From positions 1-52,045 of IMG/VR virus record IMGVR_UViG_3300047376_000089: DNA of 52,045 bases; one strand, written 5' to 3'. Below the pieces are notes generated by a model. The model was not told the origin of the DNA, searched no databases, and saw only the letters and a list, made by a program, of their open reading frames with translations. Below are positions 4,893 through 22,562 of the stretch, piece after piece. The position numbers and the translations under genes were made by a program. Positions within the stretch are counted from its first letter, which is position 1; every line of letters starts with the position of its first letter. The stretch comes from a virus (lineage: Duplodnaviria > Caudoviricetes).

Positions 4893-5186
4893 TTACCATT
4901 TAACTTTGTGTGACCAATACTTTGCACTTAGCTTACTTGTTGGTTTACCCTGTGCATTGTGTCTTGCATAATAGCTCTTCTTACGAGCTTTGTCTTTTGC
5001 TGATGTAGGATTTTTACCTGCACCACTTACTCCTTGTTGTCCAAACCTAATAAACTTATACGTGTCTCCTTCTTTAGCCATAACACAATGAGACTTAGTT
5101 GGGTGCTTCGGTGTACGTTTAGGTTTATTAACACCTGTCAGCCCTTCGGCTTTCATTTTAGTTTTGACTCTTTCAGGAACTGCCAT
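4893..5186 (-). CDS. Basic hypothetical protein
   Basis: IRFGQQG...RKKSYYARH...SAKYWS..W motif typical of a phage basic-protein family. Confidence 0.75.
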   Translation of the reverse strand: MAVPERVKTKMKAEGLTGVNKPKRTPKHPTKSHCVMAKEGDTYKFIRFGQQGVSGAGKNPTSAKDKARKKSYYARHNAQGKPTSKLSAKYWSHKVKW

Positions 5187-5391
5187 CTGTCCAACCTTCC
5201 ATACGCATCGCCCACTCTACATGTTCTAAAGTAAATGGTTTACCATAGTGAGCCTGTACAGCCTCACGTACATAGTATACATCACTGTGGGGAATATGTA
5301 AATCTTCAATGTTACCGTCAAGTACGTGTTTGTAAAACTCTTCAAGAACATTGTCAGTATATAGTTTTACTGATTTTTTACTCATTGTCAA
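5173..5391 (-). CDS. Hypothetical protein, first gene of the - arm
   Basis: ORF overlapping the next gene; start codon uncertain. Confidence 0.6.
   Translation of the reverse strand: MTMSKKSVKLYTDNVLEEFYKHVLDGNIEDLHIPHSDVYYVREAVQAHYGKPFTLEHVEWAMRMEGWTDGSS
5364..5391 (-). promoter_or_regulatory. Leftward promoter
   Basis: TTGACA-N16-TAAAACTATATA. Confidence 0.55.
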
Positions 5392-5430
5392 GAACTTTCG
5401 TAATATTTATACAAAAATAATTAATATACT

Positions 5431-5521
5431 GCTCACTTATAGTGTTACATATAAGTGTATCTTAGTTTAGTATAATTATATTTAAGGTATATAACATTTA
5501 AGTGTATCACTTTAAGTGAGT
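5431..5521. repeat. Long imperfect inverted repeat
   Basis: GCTCACTTATAGTGTTACATATAA pairs with TTAAGTGTATCACTTTAAGTGAGT. Confidence 0.7.
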
Positions 5522-5540
5522 CTTAGTTTAGTTATATATA

Positions 5541-5568
5541 GTTTTACACATTTCACTCCTCGTGTCAA
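5541..5568 (-). promoter_or_regulatory. Leftward promoter of the late arm
   Basis: TTGACA-N16-TAAAACTATATA in intergenic DNA. Confidence 0.7.
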
Positions 5569-6025
5569 CCCCTAATCGTAAAAATAAGAATACTGTTCTT
5601 CATTTGCCATGTTTTACAGAACCATGTTCTATGTAAACCAGTATATACGTATTGTGGTTAACACTCCATTTTCCTGATCTGTGTGTGTATACATGTATAT
5701 ATACCACGTGACCCCCACTGGCCCTTGCCTACCCCTGCTCTCACTGCGCAATTCCGTGCATCATGCAACGTCATGGCGTGTGGTGAAATCAAATCTGCTG
5801 TCTCATCTCACCATCATATCAAAGATATGTTTAGTTTCAATAGTTTACTTGTCTACGACAACTGTTATGGAATCAGTTGCCACTCTAAAGAGTGTAAGAA
5901 TAGCTGACATATCACACCAAAGGTGTGTTCAAGTGCCGATGCTTAAAATACACCACCCACCATCTACGATGGTCAGATGCATGATCCTACAAGCCGTGCA
6001 TAGCTCTGCCAATAGTCAATCCAAC

Positions 6026-6041
6026 TGTCCAACGTTGGACA
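6026..6041. promoter_or_regulatory. Perfect 16-bp palindrome, copy 1
   Basis: TGTCCAACGTTGGACA. Confidence 0.7.
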
Positions 6042-6208
6042 CTTCACATCTAAAGATGTGGCAGAATTGTCACAGTTATCTTGCAATCCTAGGCCAGAAG
6101 CCTCGTGAGTTTAGCACACGTACTTCAAAAATATATGAAATATTTTTTGCAGTCACCTGTGAAACGACAGGCGCAGAGGATCACAGGAAGCAGCAAATTC
6201 AACTTATA

Positions 6209-6291
6209 CTATCTTCTATTCGTTTTTAATGATAAAGTATATCTCACTATTTGTGAGAGATATACATTTCTCATATAAAAACAGAAGATAG
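6209..6291 (+). repeat. Long bulged hairpin upstream of the first early gene
   Basis: CTATCTTCT..GTTTTTA..GTATATCTCAC pairs with GTGAGAGATATAC..TAAAAACAGAAGATAG. Confidence 0.7.
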
Positions 6292-6307
6292 ATAAAGGAG
6301 GCCAATC

Positions 6308-6925
6308 ATGGCAAATTCAATCTCAGTAAGCAAAACAACTCAAGAAGGAACTTCTTTGGATACTCTAGTAAAAGAGGGCAAAGCCCTGTACAACATTTGG
6401 AAACAGACTAACAGTCTGAAAGACTCAACAAAAGCCAAGGGCTTTGACACAAGGCTTGGCAAACTACTTGTTGAGCTAAAGGCTCAGTCTAGCCTAGATA
6501 GTGGTCAAATCAGTAGACAAACCTTGGCAACATATCATGTTGACAAAATAGATCGTAGAAGACGATCAGAAGCTTTGTGGTTCGTTGAAAACGAAGTTGA
6601 ATGTCGAGAGTTCATAGAAGCCTCAAAGAAGGGCTTCACATCTCTAACTGCTCTTCAAGCAGCAATGCGTAAAGCTGCTAAAGCAGATGATGCTGCTGCT
6701 GAACCAACCACTGCTAAAGCAGAACCGTCCAATGTTGGACAGTCTAACGGAGTTAAGGACACTGGTTGGGTAGATGTTGACAAGGGAACGTTCTCACTTG
6801 GCAATACTCGTACTGCAATCGTTGACGCAATCTTTGCACATTGCAACGATCACCAGATTGACATTGACACAATCATTGCTGACTTACAGTCAAAAGCAGC
6901 TTTAGCAAACAAGGTGGCAGCATAA
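6308..6925 (+). CDS. First early protein, helical putative DNA-binding protein
   Basis: RBS AAAGGAGG; RLGKLLVELK...RRRRSEALWF loosely DUF3102-like. Confidence 0.8.
   Translation: MANSISVSKTTQEGTSLDTLVKEGKALYNIWKQTNSLKDSTKAKGFDTRLGKLLVELKAQSSLDSGQISRQTLATYHVDKIDRRRRSEALWFVENEVECREFIEASKKGFTSLTALQAAMRKAAKADDAAAEPTTAKAEPSNVGQSNGVKDTGWVDVDKGTFSLGNTRTAIVDAIFAHCNDHQIDIDTIIADLQSKAALANKVAA
6726..6741. promoter_or_regulatory. Palindrome copy 2 (intragenic)
   Basis: CGTCCAATGTTGGACA. Confidence 0.7.
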
Positions 6926-6952
6926 GCTGTCACTAACATAGGAGTTATAAAA

Positions 6953-7111
6953 ATGATTACATTTTTAATGTTTATGATTAATGGTATGGCAATGGTAACT
7001 TTGTTTTTGATTGCTATGACAGTTGGAACGTTACAAGCAATACCTAGTATGTTAGTTGTGTTTGTGATTGTAATGGCAATCAACTACCTAGTGATGTATA
7101 TGAATGGATGA
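6953..7111 (+). CDS. Small hydrophobic membrane protein (52 aa)
   Basis: MITFLMFMINGMAMVTLFLIAM...; RBS AGGAG. Confidence 0.6.
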   Translation: MITFLMFMINGMAMVTLFLIAMTVGTLQAIPSMLVVFVIVMAINYLVMYMNG

Positions 7112-7140
7112 ACTTTAGTAGTCACATAGTTAAATAACAC

Positions 7141-7169
7141 TTGATACTTTAGTGAAAGTGTTATATAAC
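7141..7169 (+). promoter_or_regulatory. Early promoter embedded in an inverted repeat
   Basis: TTGATA-N17-TATAAC inside hairpin 7116-7183. Confidence 0.55.
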
Positions 7170-7201
7170 ATATGTAGACACTAACAAACTATAACTGAAA
7201 C

Positions 7202-7217
7202 CGTCCAATGTTGGACA
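7202..7217. promoter_or_regulatory. Palindrome copy 3 (intergenic)
   Basis: CGTCCAATGTTGGACA between promoter and RBS. Confidence 0.7.
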
Positions 7218-7235
7218 CTTTAAACGGAGTTTATT

Positions 7236-7463
7236 ATGAGAATATTAAGAAAATCAGTATTAACTGGTAACGTCAATACAATGGATATCAATGTAACTGA
7301 TGAGCAGTTTACTAAATATCTAGGTAGTAATGAGTGCATACAAAATGTACTGCCTGACTTATCAGTTGATGAACGTGAGTTTCTTATATCTGGTATTACA
7401 CCAGATGAATGGGATAATACATTTTCATTTACTGCAATCTCTCTAAATGCGGAGGAAGCATAA
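7236..7463 (+). CDS. Conserved phage hypothetical protein
   Basis: IQNVLPDLSVDEREFLISGITPDEWD motif. Confidence 0.8.
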   Translation: MRILRKSVLTGNVNTMDINVTDEQFTKYLGSNECIQNVLPDLSVDEREFLISGITPDEWDNTFSFTAISLNAEEA

Positions 7464-8047
7464 TGTCTGTAAGACAAATACTAAAAGTATACAAGTCGGC
7501 TACTGCTGACGAAGTGAAGCATGGCATGAAATGGTACGCCATTGCCAAACGTGATAGCACTAAGGTAGCCAAGGAATTTGGTATCAGTATAAATACTGTT
7601 GTCGGTGTAGTTGCTGCACTGTCACCCAACTTAGGTTGGAATATCAACATCAAAGCTGCTCGTATTCTAGTCGAGTGCTTTGCCAATGGTGGTGCAATGG
7701 ATGACGTTACTGTGTCAGCCTATCCACAGAACAAGCTGAAAGCTTGGGAAATGCTTGAACAAAAAATGGTTCGTAAGAAAACCATTATGGCTAAACTCAA
7801 TGGCCCTAAGACTACTGCGTTCTTTGCCAATATCATTGGCCTTGACGTTGTGACAGTTGACGGTCATGCTAAGAACATACATGATGGACTACGTAGGGTT
7901 CTCAAGAACAGTAACGTAGGTGTCAAGGAATACAGAACCATATCGGAAGCTTACTACAAAGCTGCTGACAAGGTGGGTATCAAAGGCTATCAAATGCAAG
8001 CTATCACTTGGGTAGCATGGCGTAGACAACATAACATTGCGAGGTAA
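7463..8047 (+). CDS. HhH-GPD/EndoIII-like fold protein, putative DNA glycosylase
   Basis: WY...GVVAALSP...GPKTTAFFANI...VTVDGHA...QMQAITW. Confidence 0.6.
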   Translation: MSVRQILKVYKSATADEVKHGMKWYAIAKRDSTKVAKEFGISINTVVGVVAALSPNLGWNINIKAARILVECFANGGAMDDVTVSAYPQNKLKAWEMLEQKMVRKKTIMAKLNGPKTTAFFANIIGLDVVTVDGHAKNIHDGLRRVLKNSNVGVKEYRTISEAYYKAADKVGIKGYQMQAITWVAWRRQHNIAR

Positions 8048-8051
8048 AATT

Positions 8052-8354
8052 ATGATGGACGATTTACACAACAACATTAATGTTTGGCATGGCACTACAA
8101 AAATATCTATATGCCAACACTGGGATACACCTAGTGATAGGCTTAATGGTGATGCTGCTATGCAAGAGGTAGGTATTATACCTGATGATGGTGACTGGGG
8201 AAATATGCACATTGAAAAATACTCTGCCAGTTTAGATCATCTTATAGATGTATTGGAAGGAATACGACATGAAATTGAAGCAAAGAAATATAACGAATCC
8301 AGTGGCAAAGGCGATGCTAGAGCAACGCAAACCGCCACAGGTAGTGCCACCTAA
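8052..8354 (+). CDS. Hypothetical protein
   Basis: ORF with GAGG RBS. Confidence 0.6.
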   Translation: MMDDLHNNINVWHGTTKISICQHWDTPSDRLNGDAAMQEVGIIPDDGDWGNMHIEKYSASLDHLIDVLEGIRHEIEAKKYNESSGKGDARATQTATGSAT

Positions 8355-8424
8355 GAAGGGCACGAAACGCAAGCCTAGTAAGAAGGAGAAGTATAATGCG
8401 TTACGAGATGCAAAACTTTGTTAA
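8269..8424 (+). CDS. Small basic protein (NPVAKAM motif)
   Basis: Hand-translated 51 aa; overlaps the previous ORF. Confidence 0.5.
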   Translation: MKLKQRNITNPVAKAMLEQRKPPQVVPPKKGTKRKPSKKEKYNALRDAKLC

Positions 8425-8542
8425 GTTTGCAAGCACCAAAAAAGTGTCCAATGTTGGACAGAAACCTAAACGTGATGAGCACAAACGTTTACGTAAAATT
8501 GCACGTAAAAACAAAAGCTTAACACAAAAATTATCAAACTAA
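8408..8542 (+). CDS. Small basic protein (44 aa)
   Basis: MQNFVKFASTKKVSNVGQKPKRDEHKRLRKIARK... Confidence 0.5.
   Translation: MQNFVKFASTKKVSNVGQKPKRDEHKRLRKIARKNKSLTQKLSN
8445..8460. promoter_or_regulatory. Palindrome copy 4
   Basis: TGTCCAATGTTGGACA. Confidence 0.7.
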
Positions 8543-8555
8543 AAAGGAGAAAACT

Positions 8556-8786
8556 ATGTTTGTATTACTAGCTACTAAACCCCTCAATGATGGCACTAAA
8601 GGCTTTCGTTTTAACTTCTTAGGACAGAAAGGCTTGCTACGTAAACGTAGTCGGAAGTCTCGTGGCTTCTCACTATTCAATCGTGACAAGTGCATGACTG
8701 CACACCATGTAGGCAAGTACAGTCTATATGTTGAGCATAACCGCAACCAAAAAACAGAACGTAGGTTCTGGCATTTCGCAGGTTAA
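8556..8786 (+). CDS. Basic hypothetical protein
   Basis: RBS AAAGGAG. Confidence 0.75.
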   Translation: MFVLLATKPLNDGTKGFRFNFLGQKGLLRKRSRKSRGFSLFNRDKCMTAHHVGKYSLYVEHNRNQKTERRFWHFAG

Positions 8787-8908
8787 TGGTGATAACACGT
8801 CATAAGGGTAAGTACACTGTGTACGGTGATGATGGGTATGTGCTCGTCATCACACGATACAAGAACGTTGCAAAACAAATAATCAAGGATTATAAAAATG
8901 AAAGTTGA
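8786..8908 (+). CDS. Small hypothetical protein (40 aa)
   Basis: TAATG coupling; MVITRHKGKYTVYGDDGYVLVITR. Confidence 0.55.
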   Translation: MVITRHKGKYTVYGDDGYVLVITRYKNVAKQIIKDYKNES

Positions 8909-9263
8909 AGTATATTTTAATCTACACAGACGTGTATTCTCTGTCCGTTCATGTAAGACTGGACGTGTAATACATCATGCAAAAGATGTACACATTGTGA
9001 ACCCAAAGTTTGTGGTTCGTGAAGGTGGCAGACAACGTGTACTGCGTGAACGTAAGAAGAATGTTCATGCCTTTGTTCGTGGTAATCTCACTGCCTTTAA
9101 AGATAGTCCAAGCTATCTTGCAGATACTATTGGGTATAATCCATTCAAGTATGATAGCTTTGTTAAGATGCCAGATGAAGCACCTGTGTACAAAGCATTT
9201 CGTGCATGGTTAAATGTAAACGGCAATGACATGCCAACAATACAAGCAGAAGGAGTACAATAA
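8898..9263 (+). CDS. Conserved phage protein of unknown function
   Basis: VYFNLH..FSVR...GRQRVLRERKKNVHAFV.G motif. Confidence 0.85.
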   Translation: MKVEVYFNLHRRVFSVRSCKTGRVIHHAKDVHIVNPKFVVREGGRQRVLRERKKNVHAFVRGNLTAFKDSPSYLADTIGYNPFKYDSFVKMPDEAPVYKAFRAWLNVNGNDMPTIQAEGVQ

Positions 9264-9541
9264 TGACAGAGAAAACAGTAAAGACAGAGCTAACTCGTGA
9301 AGAGGTAGTAGAACTACTAGGTCTGTATCACATCATAGATGAGATAGTCCATGACTTTGGAGAGATGTTCGACACTGACCTTGGTAAGGTGCGTAAGCTA
9401 CAAGAAATGTCTTGGACATTGAAAAATCTATTTGACTTTAGACCAACCACAAATGACAATGGTTATCCAGAGCACTATCGTCCATACGTTATGCCTGACG
9501 ATGACAGGGCGTGGTATCACACACCAGAGGAAGACCAATGA
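9263..9541 (+). CDS. Hypothetical protein
   Basis: Coupled ORF with RBS. Confidence 0.75.
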   Translation: MTEKTVKTELTREEVVELLGLYHIIDEIVHDFGEMFDTDLGKVRKLQEMSWTLKNLFDFRPTTNDNGYPEHYRPYVMPDDDRAWYHTPEEDQ

Positions 9542-9777
9542 TAGTAAACGGATATGAAATAGTAGTTGAGATTGATGGTGTCAAAAGCCTTATCAATCTT
9601 GACGATCTGTACCCATCCATCAAGGACTGGCACAGTGCGGCAGAGTTCGCCATGAAGATGGCACGTGAGGCAAATCCTAACGCAGTACACATTGACTTCC
9701 TTGAGTGTGGTGAGTATGAACTTGAAGGGTACGAAGAGATACCCTATATACATGAAGCACCATTTCAAGTGCAATGA
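9538..9777 (+). CDS. Acidic hypothetical protein
   Basis: ATGA overlap with previous stop; GAGG RBS. Confidence 0.7.
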   Translation: MIVNGYEIVVEIDGVKSLINLDDLYPSIKDWHSAAEFAMKMAREANPNAVHIDFLECGEYELEGYEEIPYIHEAPFQVQ

Positions 9778-9790
9778 AAGGAGAGTACGA

Positions 9791-10153
9791 ATGGAAGCCA
9801 AGATAAAACTAACTAAGACCATGCTCGACAAGAGCATAATAGATGCCAACAAATCTGTGCAGCAGTTTCTAACTGAGGAACTAGAGCACACGTTTGATGA
9901 GCTAGATGCAGGTGAAAAGATGCCTTGGAACTCATTGTATGAGGACAATACCCCTACAACTGTTACATTCTACAAAGCCAAAGGCAGAGGTGACAAACGT
10001 ATTAGCATCAAGAACTTGCGTAAGTTTGCAGCAGAGGGAGACACTGTGAAGCTACGATCAGAGGTTGTGATGATTGAAGATTGCATCTTTGATGTACGTG
10101 TAGTAGTGTATAAAGAAGATGATGACCAACAAGGAGAAACCGTTGCCGCCTGA
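9791..10153 (+). CDS. Stand-alone restriction-endonuclease N-terminal-like (EcoRII-N/B3-like) domain
   Basis: LTKTMLDKSIIDA...FYKAKGRGDKRISIKNL; RBS AAAGGAG. Confidence 0.5.
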   Translation: MEAKIKLTKTMLDKSIIDANKSVQQFLTEELEHTFDELDAGEKMPWNSLYEDNTPTTVTFYKAKGRGDKRISIKNLRKFAAEGDTVKLRSEVVMIEDCIFDVRVVVYKEDDDQQGETVAA

Positions 10154-10204
10154 TGATCCACACGATGACTGGGGCAACCACCCATTACCCAAGGAGACAC
10201 TAAC

Positions 10205-10714
10205 ATGAATAGATTTCTAATAAGCTACACACCTGAATGGATTGCACGTGAACTGTGTGACAAGCACATAGTCAAGATGCCATTGGAAGAGGCACAGATG
10301 TTATGCACTGCTGTATGGCAACATGCACCTGAGTATGCAGAGAAGCATGACCTATACAAGCCAGTGCATCAGAAGCACCCATGTACAATATGGGCAGCTA
10401 AAACTCGTGCCAACTACAACTATGGCCTTGCCTTGTTTGACCACATGCAAGCTGAGTACAGCTACAGGTATGGCAGACGCCATGCTTCCAACAAGCATTA
10501 CTTTGCCTTGCAAGATGCGGCACAGTACATACCTGAAGGTGACATGACACCGCACCCTGAGTGTTTCAGTGAGCACACTGACCTCAAGAGTGGTGAGAAC
10601 TGGCCTATCAAAAGCTATCGTAAGTTCTACATGACCAAGCAACGTAGGTTCAGTATGAAGTGGACGAACCGTCCAGTGCCATCATGGTTTCATTTTGAAG
10701 AGGAGTATGCATAA
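10205..10714 (+). CDS. Pyrimidine-dimer DNA glycosylase/endonuclease V family protein
   Basis: MNRF...CDKHIVKMPLEEAQML...YKPVHQKHPCTIW. Confidence 0.75.
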   Translation: MNRFLISYTPEWIARELCDKHIVKMPLEEAQMLCTAVWQHAPEYAEKHDLYKPVHQKHPCTIWAAKTRANYNYGLALFDHMQAEYSYRYGRRHASNKHYFALQDAAQYIPEGDMTPHPECFSEHTDLKSGENWPIKSYRKFYMTKQRRFSMKWTNRPVPSWFHFEEEYA

Positions 10715-10887
10715 TGATGTACGTATTAATATGGATGCAGTTGTTCAGTACACAGACGGTGGAGCACTACCAGTTAGGTAGCTATGCCACACTGGAAGAG
10801 TGCCAGATACAATTGAGTAAGGCAGCTAAGATGATAACACACAAGTCAGAGACAGTGGCTTGTCTAGAGGTGGAGACACAACAGTGA
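10714..10887 (+). CDS. Small hypothetical protein (57 aa)
   Basis: MMYVLIWMQL...YATLEEC; GAGGAG RBS. Confidence 0.65.
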   Translation: MMYVLIWMQLFSTQTVEHYQLGSYATLEECQIQLSKAAKMITHKSETVACLEVETQQ

Positions 10888-11216
10888 TACTATACAAGTC
10901 AAGTAAGGGTCAGTGGGTTGGCACTCAGAGAGATGCTCAAAGATACTTTCCTAGAGATTGGGAGCAAGTTGAAGTGCCTGTGTCTAAGGAGTACCTCATT
11001 GAGTTCCTAAACGTTCACAAGGTAGGGGCGTATTCACAGTCTCCACCACCACAACAGCCAGTGATGACTGCACCTGACCCAGAACAGATAGACCCAGAAG
11101 CATACAGTTGGGTGTCATGGGCGTATGAAACCCTAGCAAGGGGAGACAAGGCAGAGGCACTCAAGATGTTAGAAAAAGGTTTAAGTAAACAGAAGGAGTT
11201 GATGAATGACGCCTAG
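10884..11216 (+). CDS. Hypothetical protein
   Basis: GTGA overlap start; GGAG RBS. Confidence 0.7.
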   Translation: MILYKSSKGQWVGTQRDAQRYFPRDWEQVEVPVSKEYLIEFLNVHKVGAYSQSPPPQQPVMTAPDPEQIDPEAYSWVSWAYETLARGDKAEALKMLEKGLSKQKELMNDA

Positions 11217-11397
11217 TGAAGCAGCAGAGATAGAGGCAAAGAAAACATTCAATGCCTTTGTCAAATGGTCTAAGGTTACTTTGTATTGGATCATTGGTAT
11301 ACTACTTGTACTAGCATCATGTGACTTTGGAACGGACACCAAGACAGGTAGTCAATACAACGGTGCAGTGTATGCACCATCAAACATAGGAGAATAG
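11206..11397 (+). CDS. Small membrane protein/lipoprotein resembling aa3 cytochrome c oxidase subunit IV
   Basis: KKTFNAFVKW..TM..LLVLASC. Confidence 0.5.
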   Translation: MTPSEAAEIEAKKTFNAFVKWSKVTLYWIIGILLVLASCDFGTDTKTGSQYNGAVYAPSNIGE

Positions 11398-11398
11398 G

Positions 11399-11791
11399 AT
11401 GATAGCTGAGATGCTTACATGTATTGCACTTAACGTGTACTACGAGGCACGTAGTGAGCCATTGGAAGGACAGTACGCAGTGGCTCATGTCGTACTCAAT
11501 CGTGTAGCAAGTGACAGGTTTCCAGATGACGCATGTACGGTGGTGCGGCAGGGTCTGGAGAAGGGACTGGGTAGATGCCAGTTCAGTTGGTACTGTGACG
11601 GTAAGTCCGACACACCCACAGAGAAACGAGCATGGCTCTACTCACAACTTGTAGCACACAAGGTAGTGCATGGGTATGTCAAGGACAATACCGATGGGGC
11701 TATCTACTACCATGCCAATTATGTTCGCCCCTTTTGGAGCAAGCACTACGACCACACTGTGACTTTAGGGTCACACATATTTTACAAGTAG
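11399..11791 (+). CDS. Cell wall hydrolase (SleB/Hydrolase_2 family)
   Basis: CIALNVYYEARSE..GQYAVAHVVLNRV...CQFSW...GAIYYHA...HIFY. Confidence 0.92.
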   Translation: MIAEMLTCIALNVYYEARSEPLEGQYAVAHVVLNRVASDRFPDDACTVVRQGLEKGLGRCQFSWYCDGKSDTPTEKRAWLYSQLVAHKVVHGYVKDNTDGAIYYHANYVRPFWSKHYDHTVTLGSHIFYK

Positions 11792-11820
11792 CTTATCGTT
11801 ACTAGTACAGGGAAGGGCAA

Positions 11821-11833
11821 TATGATATAACTA
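11821..11833 (+). promoter_or_regulatory. Extended -10 promoter element
   Basis: TGATATAACT in an intergenic gap; weak -35. Confidence 0.5.
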
Positions 11834-11874
11834 ATTATCAGTTGCCAATATAACAAATGAAAAGGAGAAAATAT

Positions 11875-12705
11875 ATGCCATTTGATATTCCAACACACTT
11901 AGACTTTGATGTAGAATTTGAACCAACAAAGATGAATGACAAGAAATATGTTATAAATCAAGACACTGGCGATTACCTTGGTATCGTAGGTGATGGGTTC
12001 AAGTGTGCATCACACGGTGACTTCTACCGTAATATGTATGATACAATTACAGAGGAGTTAACAGACGGTGACATTGAAAACGCCAATTACAGGTGGTCAA
12101 CCGCACGTAATGGGGCATGGTCAATGCTCGACATTACTCTGCCTGACATGCAAGTACCTATCGTGACAGACAAGATGGAGACTAGCATTGGCAATCGTAT
12201 CATTGCTTTGCATGGTGTCGATGGGTCATGCAGTAACCAAGTATTCTTTGGGGCAATTGATTTCTTTTGTACCAACGGTATGATACGTGGTGAGTTTGAT
12301 AAGATACGTAGGAAGAACACCTCGAACTTTTCCTTGGAAAGTTTTATAGGTGAGCTACAACGAGCACGTACTGACTTCTATACAGAGGCAGCTAAAATGC
12401 AAGTGTGGGCTGAGACTGACACTAAGTACATCGACATCAAGTCATTGCTTGACGAGATGATAAAGTCTGACCGTAAGGCAGAGAGGATGTATGAATTGTA
12501 TCTGCATGAGGCATCACAACGTGGTCACAACAAGTGGGCATTGTATTCTGCGTTCACTAACTATGCTTCCTATGCTGATGAACGTAATGGTTTCAACCTA
12601 CGTAACACTGGCAATGACACACAGGCAATCAGCATGTGGTCACGTGAACAAGAGGTATCCAAATGGGTATCAGACAAGAAGTTCATACAGTTGGAAGCTG
12701 CTTAA
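11875..12705 (+). CDS. DUF932/DUF945-like protein
   Basis: LGIVG..F...H; HGVDGS; FFCTNGMI; WALYSAFT. Confidence 0.75.
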   Translation: MPFDIPTHLDFDVEFEPTKMNDKKYVINQDTGDYLGIVGDGFKCASHGDFYRNMYDTITEELTDGDIENANYRWSTARNGAWSMLDITLPDMQVPIVTDKMETSIGNRIIALHGVDGSCSNQVFFGAIDFFCTNGMIRGEFDKIRRKNTSNFSLESFIGELQRARTDFYTEAAKMQVWAETDTKYIDIKSLLDEMIKSDRKAERMYELYLHEASQRGHNKWALYSAFTNYASYADERNGFNLRNTGNDTQAISMWSREQEVSKWVSDKKFIQLEAA

Positions 12706-12887
12706 TGCGTAAAAGATATGATGTAAAAATCCTTAAACAGGATGAGCTTATACGATATTCAGATGGTACGTATAGTAAACGAGTAGACATGCCTTGGTAT
12801 GCCTTTGTAATCAGAATTTATGCAGATAATAAGGAGCAAATAAAAGAAATGGTAGCAGAAAATATAGAATGGATTGAGACAGTATAA
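12705..12887 (+). CDS. Hypothetical protein
   Basis: TAATG coupling on both sides. Confidence 0.6.
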   Translation: MRKRYDVKILKQDELIRYSDGTYSKRVDMPWYAFVIRIYADNKEQIKEMVAENIEWIETV

Positions 12888-14014
12888 TGGTAGCACTGCC
12901 TAGATTTGTACAACAACGAGTGTCACTTTCGGGTGACACATCGTATCGTTTCAACCCACCACAGAGACTTGTCAATGCAGGTGTCGTGTCACGTGAAGAG
13001 TTAGGTAATGACCTACGTGTAAGTAAACAACTTGCCAAGGAGTTAAACAAACAGATAGATGATTGGAGAGTTGAACAGTCAAAGGTTGTGAGCATCAAGC
13101 CAAGCAGCAAGGTTACAGACCTAATCAACTTCTATTATTCTTCTAATGATTTCAATATGTTACGTGACTCTACAAAGATCGACTACAGGTATTTCCTCAC
13201 CATCTTACATCAGACAATGGGCTGTCGTAAGTACAAGGATGTTACATCTAAGATTGCCAAGGCTGCGTATGAGGAATGGGTGTCACGTGGTATTAGTTTT
13301 GCTAATCATACTGCTACTTGTGCTAGTAGGATATACAACTATGCAATACAGATGGAACATGCAGAGCAGAACCCATTTGCTAAGATCAAACGTAAGCAAC
13401 AGAACCAACGTAAGGTTGTGTGGACACATGGTGAGGTTAACAAGTTTCTTGACGTAGCATACAGTGACTTTGAGTACCGTAACTTAGGGCTGATTGTACA
13501 CATGGCATATGAGTGGTGTCAGAGGCTTGGAGACATGCGTAATCTTACATGGGATTGCCTTGACCTCAAAAAGCAGCAGCTTACTATGGAGCAAAGTAAA
13601 CGTAGGGCAGAGGTGTTTCTACCTATCAGTGACAACCTCAACGCCATGCTGCTAGAACAGAAAGCTGACTTTGGTTTTCAACAGTGGGTAGTACCACACC
13701 CAAAGCCAAGGTCAGGTAAGTTTGAGCCGTATGCTATGGAGAGACTGTCCAAGGTTGGACGTAAGGTAATGAGACTGGCTAAACTGTCAGAGGAACTACG
13801 CCTTATGGACATACGTAGGACTGGTGTAACAGAAATGGTAGACAAAGGTGTGCCGTTGCCACAAATTATGGCAGTGACAGGGCATACACATGTGTCTTCT
13901 GTGAAACCATATATGAAACATACATATGAAAGTGCAAATAATGCCTTGACACAGAGAGATACTTATGTACAATCGAGTGTAACGAGTAACATAGAAAGTG
14001 ATATACATGATTAA
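12887..14014 (+). CDS. int: Tyrosine recombinase/integrase
   Basis: QRLGDMRNLTW, QSKR, MDIRRTG, TGH, terminal Tyr (KPY). Confidence 0.88.
   Translation: MVALPRFVQQRVSLSGDTSYRFNPPQRLVNAGVVSREELGNDLRVSKQLAKELNKQIDDWRVEQSKVVSIKPSSKVTDLINFYYSSNDFNMLRDSTKIDYRYFLTILHQTMGCRKYKDVTSKIAKAAYEEWVSRGISFANHTATCASRIYNYAIQMEHAEQNPFAKIKRKQQNQRKVVWTHGEVNKFLDVAYSDFEYRNLGLIVHMAYEWCQRLGDMRNLTWDCLDLKKQQLTMEQSKRRAEVFLPISDNLNAMLLEQKADFGFQQWVVPHPKPRSGKFEPYAMERLSKVGRKVMRLAKLSEELRLMDIRRTGVTEMVDKGVPLPQIMAVTGHTHVSSVKPYMKHTYESANNALTQRDTYVQSSVTSNIESDIHD
13746..13761. promoter_or_regulatory. Palindrome copy 5 (within integrase)
   Basis: TGTCCAAGGTTGGACG. Confidence 0.55.
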
Positions 14015-14801
14015 TATATTAGATCATATAAGTGATATGGACATTGGTAATGGAGAGACTAGACGTACTAACTGTCCAGTATGTAATGGTGTAAAAACAT
14101 TTACAGCTACCAATAACATGGGTCAACTTGTATGGAATTGTTACAAGGCAGGGTGTCGTGTGTCGGGTGGCACACGCACTCACCTTACCAGTGATGACAT
14201 TCGTAAGTCACTTGGTACTGTAGCTGAAGAAACAGAAGCTGTATCCTTTCAGAAACCTGAGTGGATAGTAAAAGACTACAGCATGATACAAAACTTTTGT
14301 AGGGATTGGGAATTGCATCCATCCAACTTAGGTTTGTTGTATGATGTTCGTGAAGACCGTGTGGTATTTCCTGTGGTGCACAACAATATCATGGTGGATG
14401 CTACAGGTAGAGCACTAGGGAAAAAGTTACCTAAGTGGAAAAGATATGGAAAAAACTCCTTGCCATATGTATTTGGATGTGGTAAAACTGGAGTAGTCGT
14501 TGAGGACTGTGTGAGTGCAGCTATTGTAGGTGCGACAGGCGGTTCTGGATGCTCAGAGGGTGACGTATATGTCGGGGTAGCAGTGTTGGGTACGTCACTC
14601 TCTGAGGTACATAAGAAGTACTTATCACAGTTCGACACGATTATTATTGCACTTGACCCTGACGCATTACCAAAGACACTGCAATTTGCTAAAGAGTTAC
14701 GTGGTTATGTTAATAACGTAAAGGTATTACGTTTGATAGATGACCTGAAGTATCGTAATCCTACCGACATTAAAAACTTAAACACACTAGGAGATATATA
14801 A
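14007..14801 (+). CDS. DNA primase (Zn finger + TOPRIM)
   Basis: CPVC...WNCYKAGC; VVVED; ALDPDA. Confidence 0.88.
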   Translation: MINILDHISDMDIGNGETRRTNCPVCNGVKTFTATNNMGQLVWNCYKAGCRVSGGTRTHLTSDDIRKSLGTVAEETEAVSFQKPEWIVKDYSMIQNFCRDWELHPSNLGLLYDVREDRVVFPVVHNNIMVDATGRALGKKLPKWKRYGKNSLPYVFGCGKTGVVVEDCVSAAIVGATGGSGCSEGDVYVGVAVLGTSLSEVHKKYLSQFDTIIIALDPDALPKTLQFAKELRGYVNNVKVLRLIDDLKYRNPTDIKNLNTLGDI

Positions 14802-16025
14802 ATGGAATTATCATTAATACGAAGCTTGATGGACAGAGAGTTCTACGAATCACATCGTGGTGCTAAATGCCCTGACAGATTATTCAGTAAGGATGTTCGT
14901 AAGATCAAGCAAGCTATCGACAAGGCTATGGATCGTTATGAACGTACCGTTACACCAGATGAGATTGAGGCACTGTTCATGTCAAACAATCCCACCATGA
15001 CAACAGCACAGAAACAGGCGTATGGTTCTTTATTCAACCAGATTAAACGTGAGTCACCTATGGGTGGTGATGTAGCACAAGAGGTGCTGTCGAAGCTGTT
15101 CCAACAGGTAGTGGGCGAGGACATTGCTAACCTTGGGTTTGACTACGTGAACGGAGACAAGAACAGTCTCGAACCACTACGTGATTTACTTGAACGGTAT
15201 GCAGATGACTTCACACCTGATCTAAACATTGAGTGGGATGACATTGAGATTGATACACTGCTTGCCAAGAATGATTTGGAATCACAGTGGACATTCAACA
15301 TACCAAGTTTGACACGTAAGGTAGAGGGCGTCAATGCAGGACACCTGATTGAGATAGGTGCTAGACCTAACACAGGTAAGACCTCATTCCACGCCTCTCT
15401 CATTGCCTCTCCTAATGGGTTTGCCCATCAAGGTGCACGATGTGTTATACTATGTAACGAGGAAGCTTCTCACCGTGTTGGTGCTAGGTATCTTACAGCA
15501 GCTACAGGTATGACAATGCAGGAAGTCAAGAACAATCCTTCCAGAGCACGTGACGTTTATGATGCAGTCAAGAAGAACATCAAGATCAAGGACGCATCTG
15601 ATCGTGACATGGCATGGGTGGAGTCAGTATGCAAGTCGTACAAGCCTGACATTGTTGTGCTCGACATGGGTGACAAGTTTGCTAGGACTGGTGGCTTTGC
15701 TAGACCTGACGAGGCACTGAAAGCTAATGCTATCTATGCCCGACAGATTGCCAAGTCACACAACTGTGCTATCTTCTACATGTCTCAGCTATCTGCTGAT
15801 GCAGAGGGTAAGGTACTACTCAACCAGAGTATGATGGAAGGTTCACGTACTGGTAAGGCAGCAGAGGCTGACCTCATGGTATTGATTGCTAAGAACCCAG
15901 TGGTTGATGGTCAGGATGAAGAGGACACACAACGTCACTTGAATGTTGTGAAGAACAAACTATCTGGATGGCATGGTGTTGTTCATTGCGAGTTGGAATA
16001 CAAGACTGCAAGGTACATGGTTTAA
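14802..16025 (+). CDS. DnaB-like replicative helicase
   Basis: Walker A GARPNTGKT; IVVLD; SQLS; KNK. Confidence 0.92.
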   Translation: MELSLIRSLMDREFYESHRGAKCPDRLFSKDVRKIKQAIDKAMDRYERTVTPDEIEALFMSNNPTMTTAQKQAYGSLFNQIKRESPMGGDVAQEVLSKLFQQVVGEDIANLGFDYVNGDKNSLEPLRDLLERYADDFTPDLNIEWDDIEIDTLLAKNDLESQWTFNIPSLTRKVEGVNAGHLIEIGARPNTGKTSFHASLIASPNGFAHQGARCVILCNEEASHRVGARYLTAATGMTMQEVKNNPSRARDVYDAVKKNIKIKDASDRDMAWVESVCKSYKPDIVVLDMGDKFARTGGFARPDEALKANAIYARQIAKSHNCAIFYMSQLSADAEGKVLLNQSMMEGSRTGKAAEADLMVLIAKNPVVDGQDEEDTQRHLNVVKNKLSGWHGVVHCELEYKTARYMV

Positions 16026-16040
16026 TGAAAGGAGTTAATT

Positions 16041-16574
16041 ATGTTTAATGTTGAATTTAAAGATGGTCAGTATGAGTACACTGATAACTCAGGACAAGTA
16101 CGGAAGTATCCATCGTATGATGAGTTAGATAAATCATGTATTCATTGCGGTGACGAGTTAGGACAACACAATCTCGTGTTAGGCAACCTTAGAAAAAACT
16201 GTTACATATGTAGAACCTGTGATAACAATAGAAAGAAATCACGTGAACATAGACGATTAGTAAAAACAAAGTATGAGTTTCGTAGGTCTGAGCCTGAGTT
16301 AAAAACTGGATATGTATATGTCCTTAGTATACCTGCTTATCCTGACTATGTTAAGATAGGTATGAGCATTGATGTAGACAAAAGAAAAAAGGGTGCAAAC
16401 ACATGGACGCCACATAAAGATGTGATGGAACATGGTAAAGTATATAGTGAAGACAAACGTACTCTTGAGGGTATGGTACACGATAAACTAAAGAAGTATG
16501 TTGCTACTTCACAGGAGTGGTTTAAGGTAACGCCAGAGGTAGCACTAAAAACTATACGAGAATGTAAGGGATAG
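16041..16574 (+). CDS. T5orf172/GIY-YIG-like nuclease with N-terminal Zn ribbon
   Basis: CIHC..CRTC; GYVYV...VKIGMS...EWF. Confidence 0.8.
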   Translation: MFNVEFKDGQYEYTDNSGQVRKYPSYDELDKSCIHCGDELGQHNLVLGNLRKNCYICRTCDNNRKKSREHRRLVKTKYEFRRSEPELKTGYVYVLSIPAYPDYVKIGMSIDVDKRKKGANTWTPHKDVMEHGKVYSEDKRTLEGMVHDKLKKYVATSQEWFKVTPEVALKTIRECKG

Positions 16575-20820: not shown

Positions 20821-21711
20821 ATGAACCAAGTATCAACAATAAACACAGGTAACTTTAATGCAATGGCAGAGGCAATGGGTATGTCAGTAGACACCCAACA
20901 AAAGTCTCAGGCCAGTACACTTGCTAGATTGCGTGTCAATCACTCACCTATCATGGGTGAGGAAACCATCAATGGTAAGAAGGTTAAAGTTGAGGTTGTG
21001 TCAGGTGGTACATACAAGTTGGAGATACCAGATGGTCCGACTTACTACGCCACTTCAGCTACTATACGTCCATACCTACAACGTTTTATGTACAAACGTT
21101 TTGTAAAAGGTAGTGACAGTACACCTAATCGTTACGTCAAAACACTAATGGCTAACGACTTGAACAACGACATGAAGGACAATGACGGTGGCTTCAACTG
21201 TGGTAAACCTGCAGGTTACATTGAAGACTTCAAGGCATTACCTGAGAAGACACAAGACTTGATACGTCAAATCAAACGAGTACGTGTACTGTTTGGTACG
21301 GTAGAACTACATGGCATTGTAGATGCTACAGGTAAGTCAGTAGAGTTGTCACCACAGGCGTTCATCTACGAGATAGAGAATCGTGATGCGTTCAAAGGTG
21401 CAGGTGTAATCTTCAACAAGCTAGGCAAGATGCGTAGGCTACCAGTACAGCATAACGTATCAATGTCTACTGAAGAGCAGTCAATGCCTAACGGTAACGT
21501 GTGGTACTTACCTACATTTACACTTGACTTAGGTGAAACACTTGAGGTGGGTGATGGTGAGCAAGAAACCTTTGCTAATTTCATGGCATGGATTGAGAAC
21601 TATAATGAGTACATCAAGTCTGCATGGAATGATAATGCCTACAAGAATGACGATACAGATACAGATACTGTAGAGGAGTTCGTAGACATTGACGCAGAGG
21701 ACTTTGTGTAA
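20821..21711 (+). CDS. Putative ssDNA-binding/recombination protein
   Basis: Position after polymerase; highly acidic C-tail ending EDFV. Confidence 0.6.
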   Translation: MNQVSTINTGNFNAMAEAMGMSVDTQQKSQASTLARLRVNHSPIMGEETINGKKVKVEVVSGGTYKLEIPDGPTYYATSATIRPYLQRFMYKRFVKGSDSTPNRYVKTLMANDLNNDMKDNDGGFNCGKPAGYIEDFKALPEKTQDLIRQIKRVRVLFGTVELHGIVDATGKSVELSPQAFIYEIENRDAFKGAGVIFNKLGKMRRLPVQHNVSMSTEEQSMPNGNVWYLPTFTLDLGETLEVGDGEQETFANFMAWIENYNEYIKSAWNDNAYKNDDTDTDTVEEFVDIDAEDFV

Positions 21712-22562
21712 TGTATCACCGTGCTGAACTAGCAATACATCAGTACCTAGAAAATGCTGCCAACGGTAAGTCTACTATGTCGGATGAAACAATCGACACG
21801 GTAGCACGTGAGGTAGCAGAGGCACTGAAACGTCAGTTCGGTAGTGGTAATAAACGTGGTGAGTTCAGGTTAAGGATGTCCAACATTGGGCGTCCTACTT
21901 GCCAACTCTGGTTTGATAAGAACAAACCTGAAACGGCATTACCAAAGCCGACTACATTTGTAATGAACATGATGTTAGGAGATATAGTTGAGGCTGTTTT
22001 TAAGGGTGTTCTTAAAGAGTCTAACGTGGCTTTTGAAGACACTGATAAAGTTAGCCTTCCAGTGGGAGATAGTAATGATACTGTTGTTTCTGGGAGTTAT
22101 GATCTTATCGTAGACGGTGCACTTGATGATGTAAAGTCAGCATCAGATTGGTCTTACAGAAATAAGTTTGAGTCATACGATACGTTAGCCAAAGGAGATT
22201 CGTTTGGATATGTCGGGCAGTTAGCAGGTTATGCTAAAGCTTCAGGTAAGAAGGTAGGTGGTTGGTGGGTAGTCAACAAAGCCAACGGTGGCATCAAGTA
22301 TGTACCTGCTGACAACCTTGACATGGAAGCAGAGATGGACAAGATCAGACAGACTGTGGAGACAGTCAATAAGAACGAGTTCAAACGATGCTTCAGCCCT
22401 GTACCTGAGTTCTTTAGGGGTAAACCTACAGGCAATACGGTACTCAATGATGGTTGCAAGTTCTGCGACTATCGACACGAGTGTTGGCCTAACATGGTGG
22501 AAGAGCCATCACGAATGTCAAAAGCAAAAGACCCTAAGATAGTGGCATACATAGAGGAGTAA
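21711..22562 (+). CDS. PD-(D/E)xK Cas4-like exonuclease
   Basis: RMSNIGRPTCQLW; GSYDL..DDVKS; Y.GQL.GY; CKFCDYRHEC. Confidence 0.82.
   Translation: MYHRAELAIHQYLENAANGKSTMSDETIDTVAREVAEALKRQFGSGNKRGEFRLRMSNIGRPTCQLWFDKNKPETALPKPTTFVMNMMLGDIVEAVFKGVLKESNVAFEDTDKVSLPVGDSNDTVVSGSYDLIVDGALDDVKSASDWSYRNKFESYDTLAKGDSFGYVGQLAGYAKASGKKVGGWWVVNKANGGIKYVPADNLDMEAEMDKIRQTVETVNKNEFKRCFSPVPEFFRGKPTGNTVLNDGCKFCDYRHECWPNMVEEPSRMSKAKDPKIVAYIEE

Follow-up and report, generated by a model that had tools for sequence, protein, structure and literature searches.

A repeated palindrome and a candidate early regulator that changes with it in HMO-2011-type phages

The stretch analyzed here, referred to as the window, is a 52,045-nt IMG/VR virus contig (IMGVR_UViG_3300047376_000089) that is 94% complete and whose nearest relatives in culture are two HMO-2011-type roseophages, CRP-1 and CRP-345. 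Its early region carries a repeated 14-bp palindrome, and its first early gene (6308-6925) encodes the candidate reader of these sites, in the following called the 6308 protein (Table 1). The motif GTCCAANGTTGGAC (GTCCAA-N-GTTGGAC) has five exact matches in the window, versus none in 100 dinucleotide-preserving shuffles. The original prediction, made from the sequence of the window, had given five copies by 16-bp coordinates, which are the 14-bp sites plus one base on each side, and had placed four of them within 2.5 kb where the early arm begins and the last one inside the integrase gene; the exact matches agree with this in number and place. The true symmetry of the sites is that of two 6-bp arms, GTCCAA and TTGGAC, with a 2-bp centre between them, which in the window reads CG once, TG three times and GG once.

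Table 1. Palindromic sites and surrounding features of the window
Feature	Position	Strand	Remarks
Lysis and structural arm	5391 to 1, then 52045 to 27372	minus	
Non-coding	5392-6307		
Structured non-coding region	5800-6307	+	site 1; hairpins covarying among relatives; invariant blocks
Site 1	6027-6040		GTCCAACGTTGGAC; centre CG; perfect 14-bp palindrome, 16-bp with flanks
Early and replication arm	6308-27339	+	integrase, primase, helicase, ThyX, DNA polymerase A, ribonucleotide reductase, MazG
Candidate reader gene, first early gene	6308-6925	+	205 aa; 6308 family
Site 2	6727-6740		GTCCAATGTTGGAC; centre TG; within the 6308-6925 gene, linker-coding part; encodes SNVGQ
Promoter-like block (putative)	7141-7169	+	TTGATA-N15-TATATAAC; ~33 nt 5′ of site 3
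Site 3	7203-7216		centre TG; cassette GAAACC-site-ACTTTAAACGGAG-N6-ATG (7236)
Lysine/arginine-rich 48-aa protein gene	8396-8542	+	conserved; holds site 4
Site 4	8446-8459		centre TG; within 48-aa reading frame 8396-8542; encodes SNVGQ
Tyrosine integrase gene	12887-14014	+	Pfam PF00589, E 6e-17; holds site 5
Site 5	13747-13760		GTCCAAGGTTGGAC; centre GG; within integrase gene 12887-14014; encodes LSKVGR
Near copy	21878-21891	minus	GCCCAATGTTGGAC; 1 mismatch; within Cas4-like exonuclease gene 21711-22562

Site 1 lies 281 nt 5′ of the 6308 gene within a conserved non-coding leader and is invariant across the 14-sequence alignment A5. Site 3 is found 20 nt before the ATG at 7236, with a GGAG (7226-7229) in between, and the block at 7141-7169 upstream of it is taken to be promoter-like because it is conserved in relatives; the third copy would therefore lie between a promoter and a ribosome-binding site, as had been proposed. 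A consensus promoter scan, in which promoter counts were no better than in shuffles, missed this block because its second hexamer ends in C, and a terminator scan classified the motif as terminator-like on the minus strand only. The promoter-like block also sits in a longer palindrome at 7130-7172, the window arms of which (TTAAATAACACTT-N13-AAGTGTTATATAA) have one mismatch in the left arm. In most relatives this palindrome reads TTATATAACACTT-N13-AAGTGTTATATAA, with fully complementary arms and an inner ACTTT/AAAGT repeat, and equivalents are present in L173, L198, L223, L242, L244, L224, and L213. This larger palindrome may act as a further operator, or else as a bidirectional element.

The copies within genes are translated as SNVGQ at sites 2 and 4 and as SKVGR at site 5, just as the original prediction had read them. 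The frame giving SNVGQ is shared by the 48-aa gene and the 6308 gene, the 48-aa reading frame and its site are both kept in relatives, and locus L219 contains two tandem copies of this gene with one site in each. Divergent homologs of the 6308 protein in L208 and L221 are without the in-gene site and also without the SNVGQ peptide, so that the constraint acts on the nucleic acid and not on the protein, which upholds the earlier claim in this respect. Synonymous-site conservation, which had been suggested as a check, is seen only in part for the integrase copy: six of nine close integrases having the LSKVGR residues keep the site, whereas the other three encode them with synonymous codons and carry no site. 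When up to two mismatches were allowed, only the near copy at 21878-21891 was added, with 0.9 expected. The same one-mismatch copy is present in CRP-1, it is exact at the matching place in L208, and CRP-345 carries an exact copy of the palindrome at 14469.

A pattern scan of IMG/VR yielded at least 167 stretches on at least 116 contigs. Among the matches listed, 33 contigs contained 2-7 copies within a few kb and 83 a single copy, the latter being largely at chance level. With 10-kb flanks, 13 of 15 clustered loci turned out to be HMO-2011-type relatives sharing early genes with the window, and the comparable clusters that the original prediction had asked about are thus present in related genomes. 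Both cultured relatives with the motif, CRP-1 (5 copies) and CRP-345 (6 copies), encode the 6308 family, and CRP-2 and CRP-207 contain neither the family nor the motif. The canonical motif is likewise absent from HMO-2011 (0 copies), and this phage has a related palindrome, GTCCG-ACAG/CTGT-CGGAC, of which five copies occupy the three kinds of position seen for the canonical sites.

A tblastn search with the 6308 protein matched CRP-1 and CRP-345 only. An iterative search found the family in every clustered HMO-type locus spanning the region, and a profile search of 1.84 billion representatives recovered 129 family clusters, all of ~200 aa, for which no sequence match in Pfam, PDB or PHROG was obtained. 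The HMO-2011 protein gp74 (NC_021864.1 54168-54785; hypothetical protein), missed by the single-sequence tblastn, is a divergent member of the family (profile E 6e-42). HMO-2011 gp01, which had also been considered as a homolog, was dismissed, BLASTP and hhalign being not significant and gp74 being the real homolog. In ESM Atlas the 6308 protein led to unnamed viral clusters only, together with a DUF3102 lead (29% of members, score 0.93).

Loci were then chosen by homology of the protein alone, namely the best 80 of ~196 IMG/VR family loci plus one divergent locus. In 67 of these 81 loci, 2-9 exact GTCCAA-NN-TTGGAC sites are present (336 sites in 767 kb). Twelve of the 14 loci without the canonical motif instead carry 2-6 copies of GTCCGA-NN-TCGGAC at equivalent places, L254 has three GTCCTA-NN-TAGGAC sites, and L331, a partial locus, has a single GTCCGA copy. 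All loci that code for the family and cover the early region contain sites.

The placement of the sites was counted for 298 non-redundant sites in 80 protein-selected loci. Upstream of the first early gene there are 54 sites (median distance 255 nt, range 111-404), another 60 are inside this gene, 101 are followed by a Shine-Dalgarno (SD) sequence and a start codon, with 90 of these located 19-22 nt before the start, and the remaining 83 are found elsewhere, mostly inside other open reading frames. In-gene copies have unrelated flanks. Intergenic copies belong to a unit consisting of GAAACC, the site, ACTTTAAA, (A/C)GGAG, 6-8 nt and ATG. Some of these units have a near-identical promoter-like block, cacTTGATACtttagtgaaagtgtTATATAACat, ~33 nt upstream, which is itself part of the longer palindrome, and others directly follow the preceding stop codon. 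The gene content between cassettes differs among relatives, and the site centre varies (TG, CA, CG, GG, TA).

The intergenic unit GAAACC-site-ACTTTAAA-SD, often accompanied by the promoter block and lying between small variable early genes, is what would be seen if the sites were mainly PeSL-like recombination or duplication cassettes shuffling early genes, with no dedicated trans-acting reader. Such cassettes do not explain the copies in conserved genes with unrelated flanks, the invariance of the arms beside freely changing hairpins, or the genome-wide concerted switch with linked protein changes described below, and we consider this explanation very improbable. Recombination as a secondary property of the cassettes is compatible with the other readings. 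An attP or recombinase core site was discarded as well, as 6-bp arms with a 2-bp spacer do not fit it and the integrase site is absent in three of nine integrases.

Loci with GTCCAA-NN-TTGGAC are here assigned to class A and those with GTCCGA-NN-TCGGAC to class G. The arms change in pairs, and they do so at all sites of one genome together, with only three mixed genomes out of 84 (L225, L313, L315). On a quick IQ-TREE phylogeny of 71 distinct family proteins, well-supported branches force at least six changes for class G, and seven are obtained on a tree built without residues 106-146; judged from the protein tree, the site switch appears to have occurred five to seven times. Attempts to add lineages contributed little, with one locus from P0026 and none from P0113, and a second family scan led largely to contigs already included, its seven new loci being all of class A.

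Columns that follow the site class were sought in all clusters of open reading frames with at least five class-G and at least 12 class-A loci (44 clusters, 3,436 columns), a column being called class-linked if it separates the classes with at most one exception. Nineteen such columns were found. Three are in the 6308 family, namely the site-encoded N142D, T114 and R121; one is in the 48-aa protein, where a site-encoded N-to-D exchange tracks the site class; six are in antisense shadow reading frames of the same DNA; and nine are poorly populated and heterogeneous columns with few class-G rows, spread over four other clusters. After subtraction of the site-encoded, antisense and low-count heterogeneous columns, only T114S and R121 are left. 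Residue 114 is T in 65 and S in one of the class-A proteins and S in all 12 class-G proteins, and residue 121 is R (60) or K (6) in class A and N (6), A (2), S (2), Y (1) or K (1) in class G, that is, five different replacements. HMO-2011 gp74 has K and D at these two positions. A 72-aa protein (5173-5391, minus strand), encoded by the first gene of the leftward arm, was rejected as a reader: HMO-2011-type phages that lack the motif have it just as all others of this type do, and it contains no class-linked column.

The Ser114 codons are TCT in ten cases and AGT in two, two different one-step routes from threonine, and the class-G linker sequences resemble those of their class-A sisters, the haplotypes following sister clades. 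Both observations argue against one shared recombinant tract. An independent-pairs test on a tree lacking residues 106-146 and four long-branch rows gave five well-supported pairs, in which loss of R121 goes with class G in four to five and S114 in four, with none in the opposite direction. The divergent locus L225 has two class-A and two class-G sites (8882, 9525, 10091, 10340), and the combination of T114 with K121 in its protein may represent a permissive state. The original prediction had taken the sites to be bound by a dimeric protein. Co-occurrence, the concerted switch and the covariation at T114/R121 indicate a sequence-specific reader encoded by the phage and point to the 6308 protein, which had been put forward for a binding assay.

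A different reader was weighed on account of the contig L184/G001, an unrelated phage contig of 54.7 kb that is complete and encodes a Mu-type portal, an XkdF protease and a DUF932 protein, and which shows no protein similarity to the window within the 19.7 kb compared. It carries ten GTCCAA-NN-TTGGAC sites (6484-15318), most of them before ribosome-binding sites of early genes, and their centres include GG, GT, AG, AC, CT, and TG. Three tandem copies precede its first early gene, the first of which has a 3-nt centre and is not among the ten, and most of the remaining sites precede ribosome-binding sites by 8-12 nt. The first early protein of this contig has no significant BLASTP or hhalign match and no profile similarity to the 6308 family, and reaches scores of ~0.8 in ESM Atlas. 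The sharing of the site may reflect a very divergent or a non-homologous reader that has converged on it, a cassette moved between phages, or a host factor.

The palindrome might accordingly be read by a host factor or another small phage protein, with the 6308 family traveling along by common descent. In addition to the ten copies at the same position relative to the ribosome-binding site in a phage without a detectable 6308-family gene, this would suit the in-gene site of the gene for the basic 48-aa protein and the appearance of the 16-mer with its central CG, which we take to have the general look of LacI-family operators. However, phages of the same host strain differ, the motif being present in CRP-1 and not in CRP-2 (whole record) or CRP-9 (first 12 kb). 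Furthermore, all sites of a genome switch class together five to seven times among close relatives, so that a host factor would require repeated moves to hosts with altered factors, and no class-linked residue is found elsewhere beyond the site-encoded, antisense and low-count heterogeneous columns. A reader other than the 6308 protein therefore appears improbable.

A first AlphaFold2 model of the 6308 protein, based on 13 sequences, was poor (predicted local distance difference test, pLDDT, 67.7). The second, based on 89 sequences (pLDDT 85), predicts a helical N-terminal domain (16-131) that is joined by a disordered linker (~132-167) to a C-terminal domain made up of two helices (168-204). 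The stretch IDRRRRSEA at residues 81-89 is invariant. Helices 70-75 and 83-94, the second of which holds the invariant DRRRRSEA, are read by their pattern as a putative helix-turn-helix (HTH). The two class-linked residues are spaced i and i+7 on helix 113-131 of this model and lie outside the putative HTH (70-94). The best match among 48,161 chains compared with VIA-align was the DNA-binding domain of KorB on its operator (1r71_A, Z 5.0, root-mean-square deviation 3.4, 87 residues), and the DNA-binding domain of Spo0J (1vz0_A) reached Z 3.7.

These two matches bear on the resemblance to parS put forward in the original prediction, which retains a weak KorB/ParB-type fold match of the DNA-binding domain and is at odds with the lack of a ParB N-terminal domain. 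They would also fit a protein-site pair for replication or segregation, through iteron-like origin binding or KorB/ParB-like loading. Like the origin of lambda within gene O, one of the sites is placed within the gene of its would-be binder, where the linker is encoded; moreover, the three tandem copies before the first gene of L184 have a 27-nt period. On the other side, the sites do not form a cluster but are spread along 2.5-7 kb, at the starts of genes, the protein lacks an N-terminal domain of ParB, the search for a ParA partner gave none, and the phage possesses its own T7-like primase, helicase and polymerase. A scan of 89 family members gave no ParB family match among the 25 of 51 families listed. 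A role in replication or segregation is accordingly rated as highly improbable.

The nature of the target, DNA or RNA, is addressed by the way in which the sites vary. Within a class, none of the 12 arm positions varies, and in the same relatives the hairpin just 3′ of site 1 changes freely and in a compensatory manner. The 2-bp centre varies, as would be expected of an uncontacted spacer. An RNA hairpin with a 5-bp stem (GUCCA/UGGAC) and a 4-nt loop before ribosome-binding sites, read by the 6308-family protein or another factor and controlling translation or mRNA stability, was considered in its place. Its distance of 19-22 nt from the start codon at 90 of the 101 SD-preceding sites would be within reach of the initiating ribosome, and the arm changes are always symmetric and keep the pairing (GTCCGA/TCGGAC, GTCCTA/TAGGAC). 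The centre is free to vary and has 3 nt in one L184 copy, as a loop might, and the 26-nt cassette folds at -6.4 kcal/mol (z -2.2). The invariant arginine-rich DRRRR stretch of the 6308 protein, which presumably resembles RNA-binding arginine-rich motifs, could be added to this list. But the 12 arm positions are invariant over hundreds of sites while the nearby structural hairpin covaries freely, and the part that varies is the would-be loop; known hairpin-binding proteins mostly read loops and bulges. In addition, the hairpin is weak, with longer contexts no better than shuffles (z -0.6 to -1.5), 54 sites are ~255 nt 5′ of the first gene, in a possibly untranscribed region, and 143 are in genes or away from starts, and the model shows an HTH-like helical domain in a KorB-type layout. 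An RNA target is therefore considered unlikely, and duplex DNA is clearly favored over it.

Taken together, it is most likely that the palindrome is where the first early protein of the phage itself docks on the DNA, and the sites probably represent dispersed double-stranded DNA operators of an autoregulated early-gene regulator, the product of 6308-6925, with a logic like that of stoperators or of KorB. The regulator would belong to a new family of helical DNA-binding proteins. Each subunit of a dimer would read one 6-bp arm, the subunits being held together by the small C-terminal domain on its flexible linker. Binding 5′ of and inside its own gene would result in autoregulation. At later early genes, the protein would be bound between promoter and ribosome-binding site, or directly behind the stop codon of the gene before, and would block RNA polymerase, by which the early operon could be shut down late in infection or in a lysogen. 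The layout with operators upstream of and within the first gene and between promoter and SD sequence fits an autoregulated repressor blocking the elongating polymerase.

Early shut-off during lytic growth is as plausible as a function as lysogeny repressor. The original prediction had pointed out that the phage has an integrase and no recognisable CI repressor, and the Pfam match of the integrase together with the lack of any repressor-like family among 50 window proteins is in accordance with this; no other repressor candidate was found in these integrase-bearing phages. A tentative further step would be that the 6308 protein is the lysogeny or immunity repressor of the integrase-bearing HMO-2011-type phages, acting via palindromic roadblock operators. 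The A-to-G switch with T114S and loss of R121 would then be the birth of new immunity specificities, by a two-residue code flipped at least five times. Lysogeny of CRP-1 is not shown in the available portion of its description (PMC6918029).

Several observations weigh against the reading of the sites as operators of the 6308 protein. The fixed spacing of 19-22 nt to start codons, the symmetric arm changes and the L184 copy with its 3-nt centre would suit an RNA hairpin as well. L184/G001 presents the same palindrome at ten sites, most before early-gene ribosome-binding sites, and a search of the whole contig revealed no member of the 6308 family. The integrase copy counts for less in view of the three LSKVGR integrases that use synonymous codons. 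The protein has no match in Pfam, PDB or PHROG, Foldseek gave no match with either model (for the second at E <= 0.001), and a Z of 5 for the KorB match is within the noise stated for helical proteins. Additionally, a scan of 185,579 bacterial species genomes revealed no relative of the 6308 family and hence no prophage copy.

Further points of this kind concern the covariation. The sign test on the independent pairs gave p 0.06-0.25, the test being underpowered because there are only five well-supported pairs. Residues 114 and 121 are encoded only 60-80 nt from the in-gene site, and in the 21-codon segment containing them the class-G lineages are mutually slightly closer than to their class-A neighbors (e.g., 0.91 vs. 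0.87), which leaves room for short-tract recombination. Three loci also deviate from the linkage: L277 combines S114/R121 with class-A sites and looks like an intermediate, L301 has K121 with class-G sites, and the divergent L221 has T114/N121 with class-A sites.

The region that surrounds site 1 has further characteristics. Just 3′ of the site, at 6057-6074, one or two short hairpins occur whose stems differ among relatives with the pairing kept (CACATC/GATGTG, CATATAC/GTATATG, TAGATG/CATCTA, CACAG/CTGTG). The structured region at 5800-6307, of ~400-500 nt, contains invariant blocks including GAGTTT...AACTTC and TGCAGT...GAAACG...GGATC, as well as a covarying hairpin, TATATCTCAC-N6-GTGAGAGATATA, ~50 nt before the ATG. 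A long leader RNA, a small RNA, an origin and a packaging element are all conceivable for this region. An Rfam search of 5300-8700 returned no family and one sub-threshold csRNA match (E 0.73). Contigs from RNA libraries (four runs), which cover small parts of 5400-9400, show no starts, ends or strand and were not used, and where they are joined at the motif, this comes from the mapping of repeated sequence. Farther upstream, the divergent control region contains the direct repeats TAAGTGTATCTTAGTTTAGT (5452, 5513) and TATATAGTTTTAC (5358, 5535), and 5443-5553 is 79% identical to non-coding DNA of HMO-2011 (53276-53364), the sole match to that phage at the DNA level. In the replication arm, a putative homing endonuclease gene of T5orf172/MUG113 type (GIY-YIG-like) lies at 16041-16574 between the helicase gene and thyX and is missing from the equivalent place in CRP-1. 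A search of the window for tRNA genes gave none.

The hosts of HMO-2011-type phages are SAR116 and Roseobacter, and these phages are among the most abundant marine viral groups, as stated in the part of PMC9038755 that was available. A term search of the available main text of this paper and of PMC6918029, supplements not included, found no wording with 'repressor', 'palindrom' or 'promoter', and the 14-mer was not found in the literature searched. What is gained is a candidate regulator family (129 cluster representatives), its sites, and a natural switch in specificity, from which the residues that read a given base pair can be predicted. As CRP-1 and CRP-345 are in culture, this prediction is directly testable. 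If the protein were indeed an immunity repressor, this would also be relevant to the frequency at which these phages form lysogens in streamlined ocean bacteria.

Among known systems, the stoperators of L5 (gp71), Bxb1 and TipsytheTRex are similar in that the sites are dispersed in the early region, in short gene gaps and downstream of promoters, and to this extent the stoperator analogy of the original prediction holds. Stoperators number ~30 per genome, whereas 5-10 sites are present here, and in Pfam, PHROG and PDB searches the 6308 family gave no match that would relate it to gp71-type repressors. In Cluster A mycobacteriophages, the repressor bound at stoperators stops the elongating RNA polymerase (PMC9283540, available sections), and repressor and site motifs co-evolve into specificity groups (PMC6550527, in the portion available), the latter being like the repeated concerted specificity changes of the phages described here. 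The analogy does not extend to the form of the site: according to the same sections of PMC9283540, stoperators are asymmetric, read by a monomer and active in one orientation, whereas the sites described here are palindromic with a free 2-bp centre. The centre occurs as both TG and CA within one genome while the orientation of the flanks is kept.

KorB of the IncP plasmids RK2/RP4 combines a helical DNA-binding domain, a disordered linker and a small C-terminal dimerization domain, and its sequence-specific contacts lie outside the helix-turn-helix (PMC5577506, in the sections available). The model of the 6308 protein predicts the same order of a helical domain, a linker and a small C-terminal domain, likewise with the class-linked residues outside the putative HTH, and, like the OB operators of KorB, the site is a short palindrome with many copies per replicon, near and far from promoters. 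In contrast to KorB, the 6308 protein has no ParB/Srx N-terminal domain and no sequence similarity to it, and its predicted C-terminal domain consists of two helices and not of a beta-barrel. Lambda Cro is a small product of a first early gene that binds palindromic operators and turns down early transcription, including its own. The 6308 protein, also a small first-early-gene product, would resemble it in binding palindromes and turning down early transcription. The operators of Cro overlap two early promoters, whereas most of the sites described here are located at ~+26 to +40 or between genes and one is within the gene of the regulator. In comparison with lambda N/boxB, the would-be loop is variable here, and the arginine-rich stretch is predicted to be in a folded helix.

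The PeSLs of T4-type phages are composite promoter/terminator motifs that mediate modular shuffling (PMC4122927; PMC2839356, both as far as available). The repeated combination of promoter-like block, palindrome and SD sequence between small variable early genes is similar to them. No dedicated binding protein is claimed for PeSLs, whereas the palindrome described here also occurs alone in genes and covaries with a protein. The system proposed is of a known kind, a phage regulator with dispersed operators, and what is new is the protein family, the palindromic form of the sites and the natural switch in specificity.

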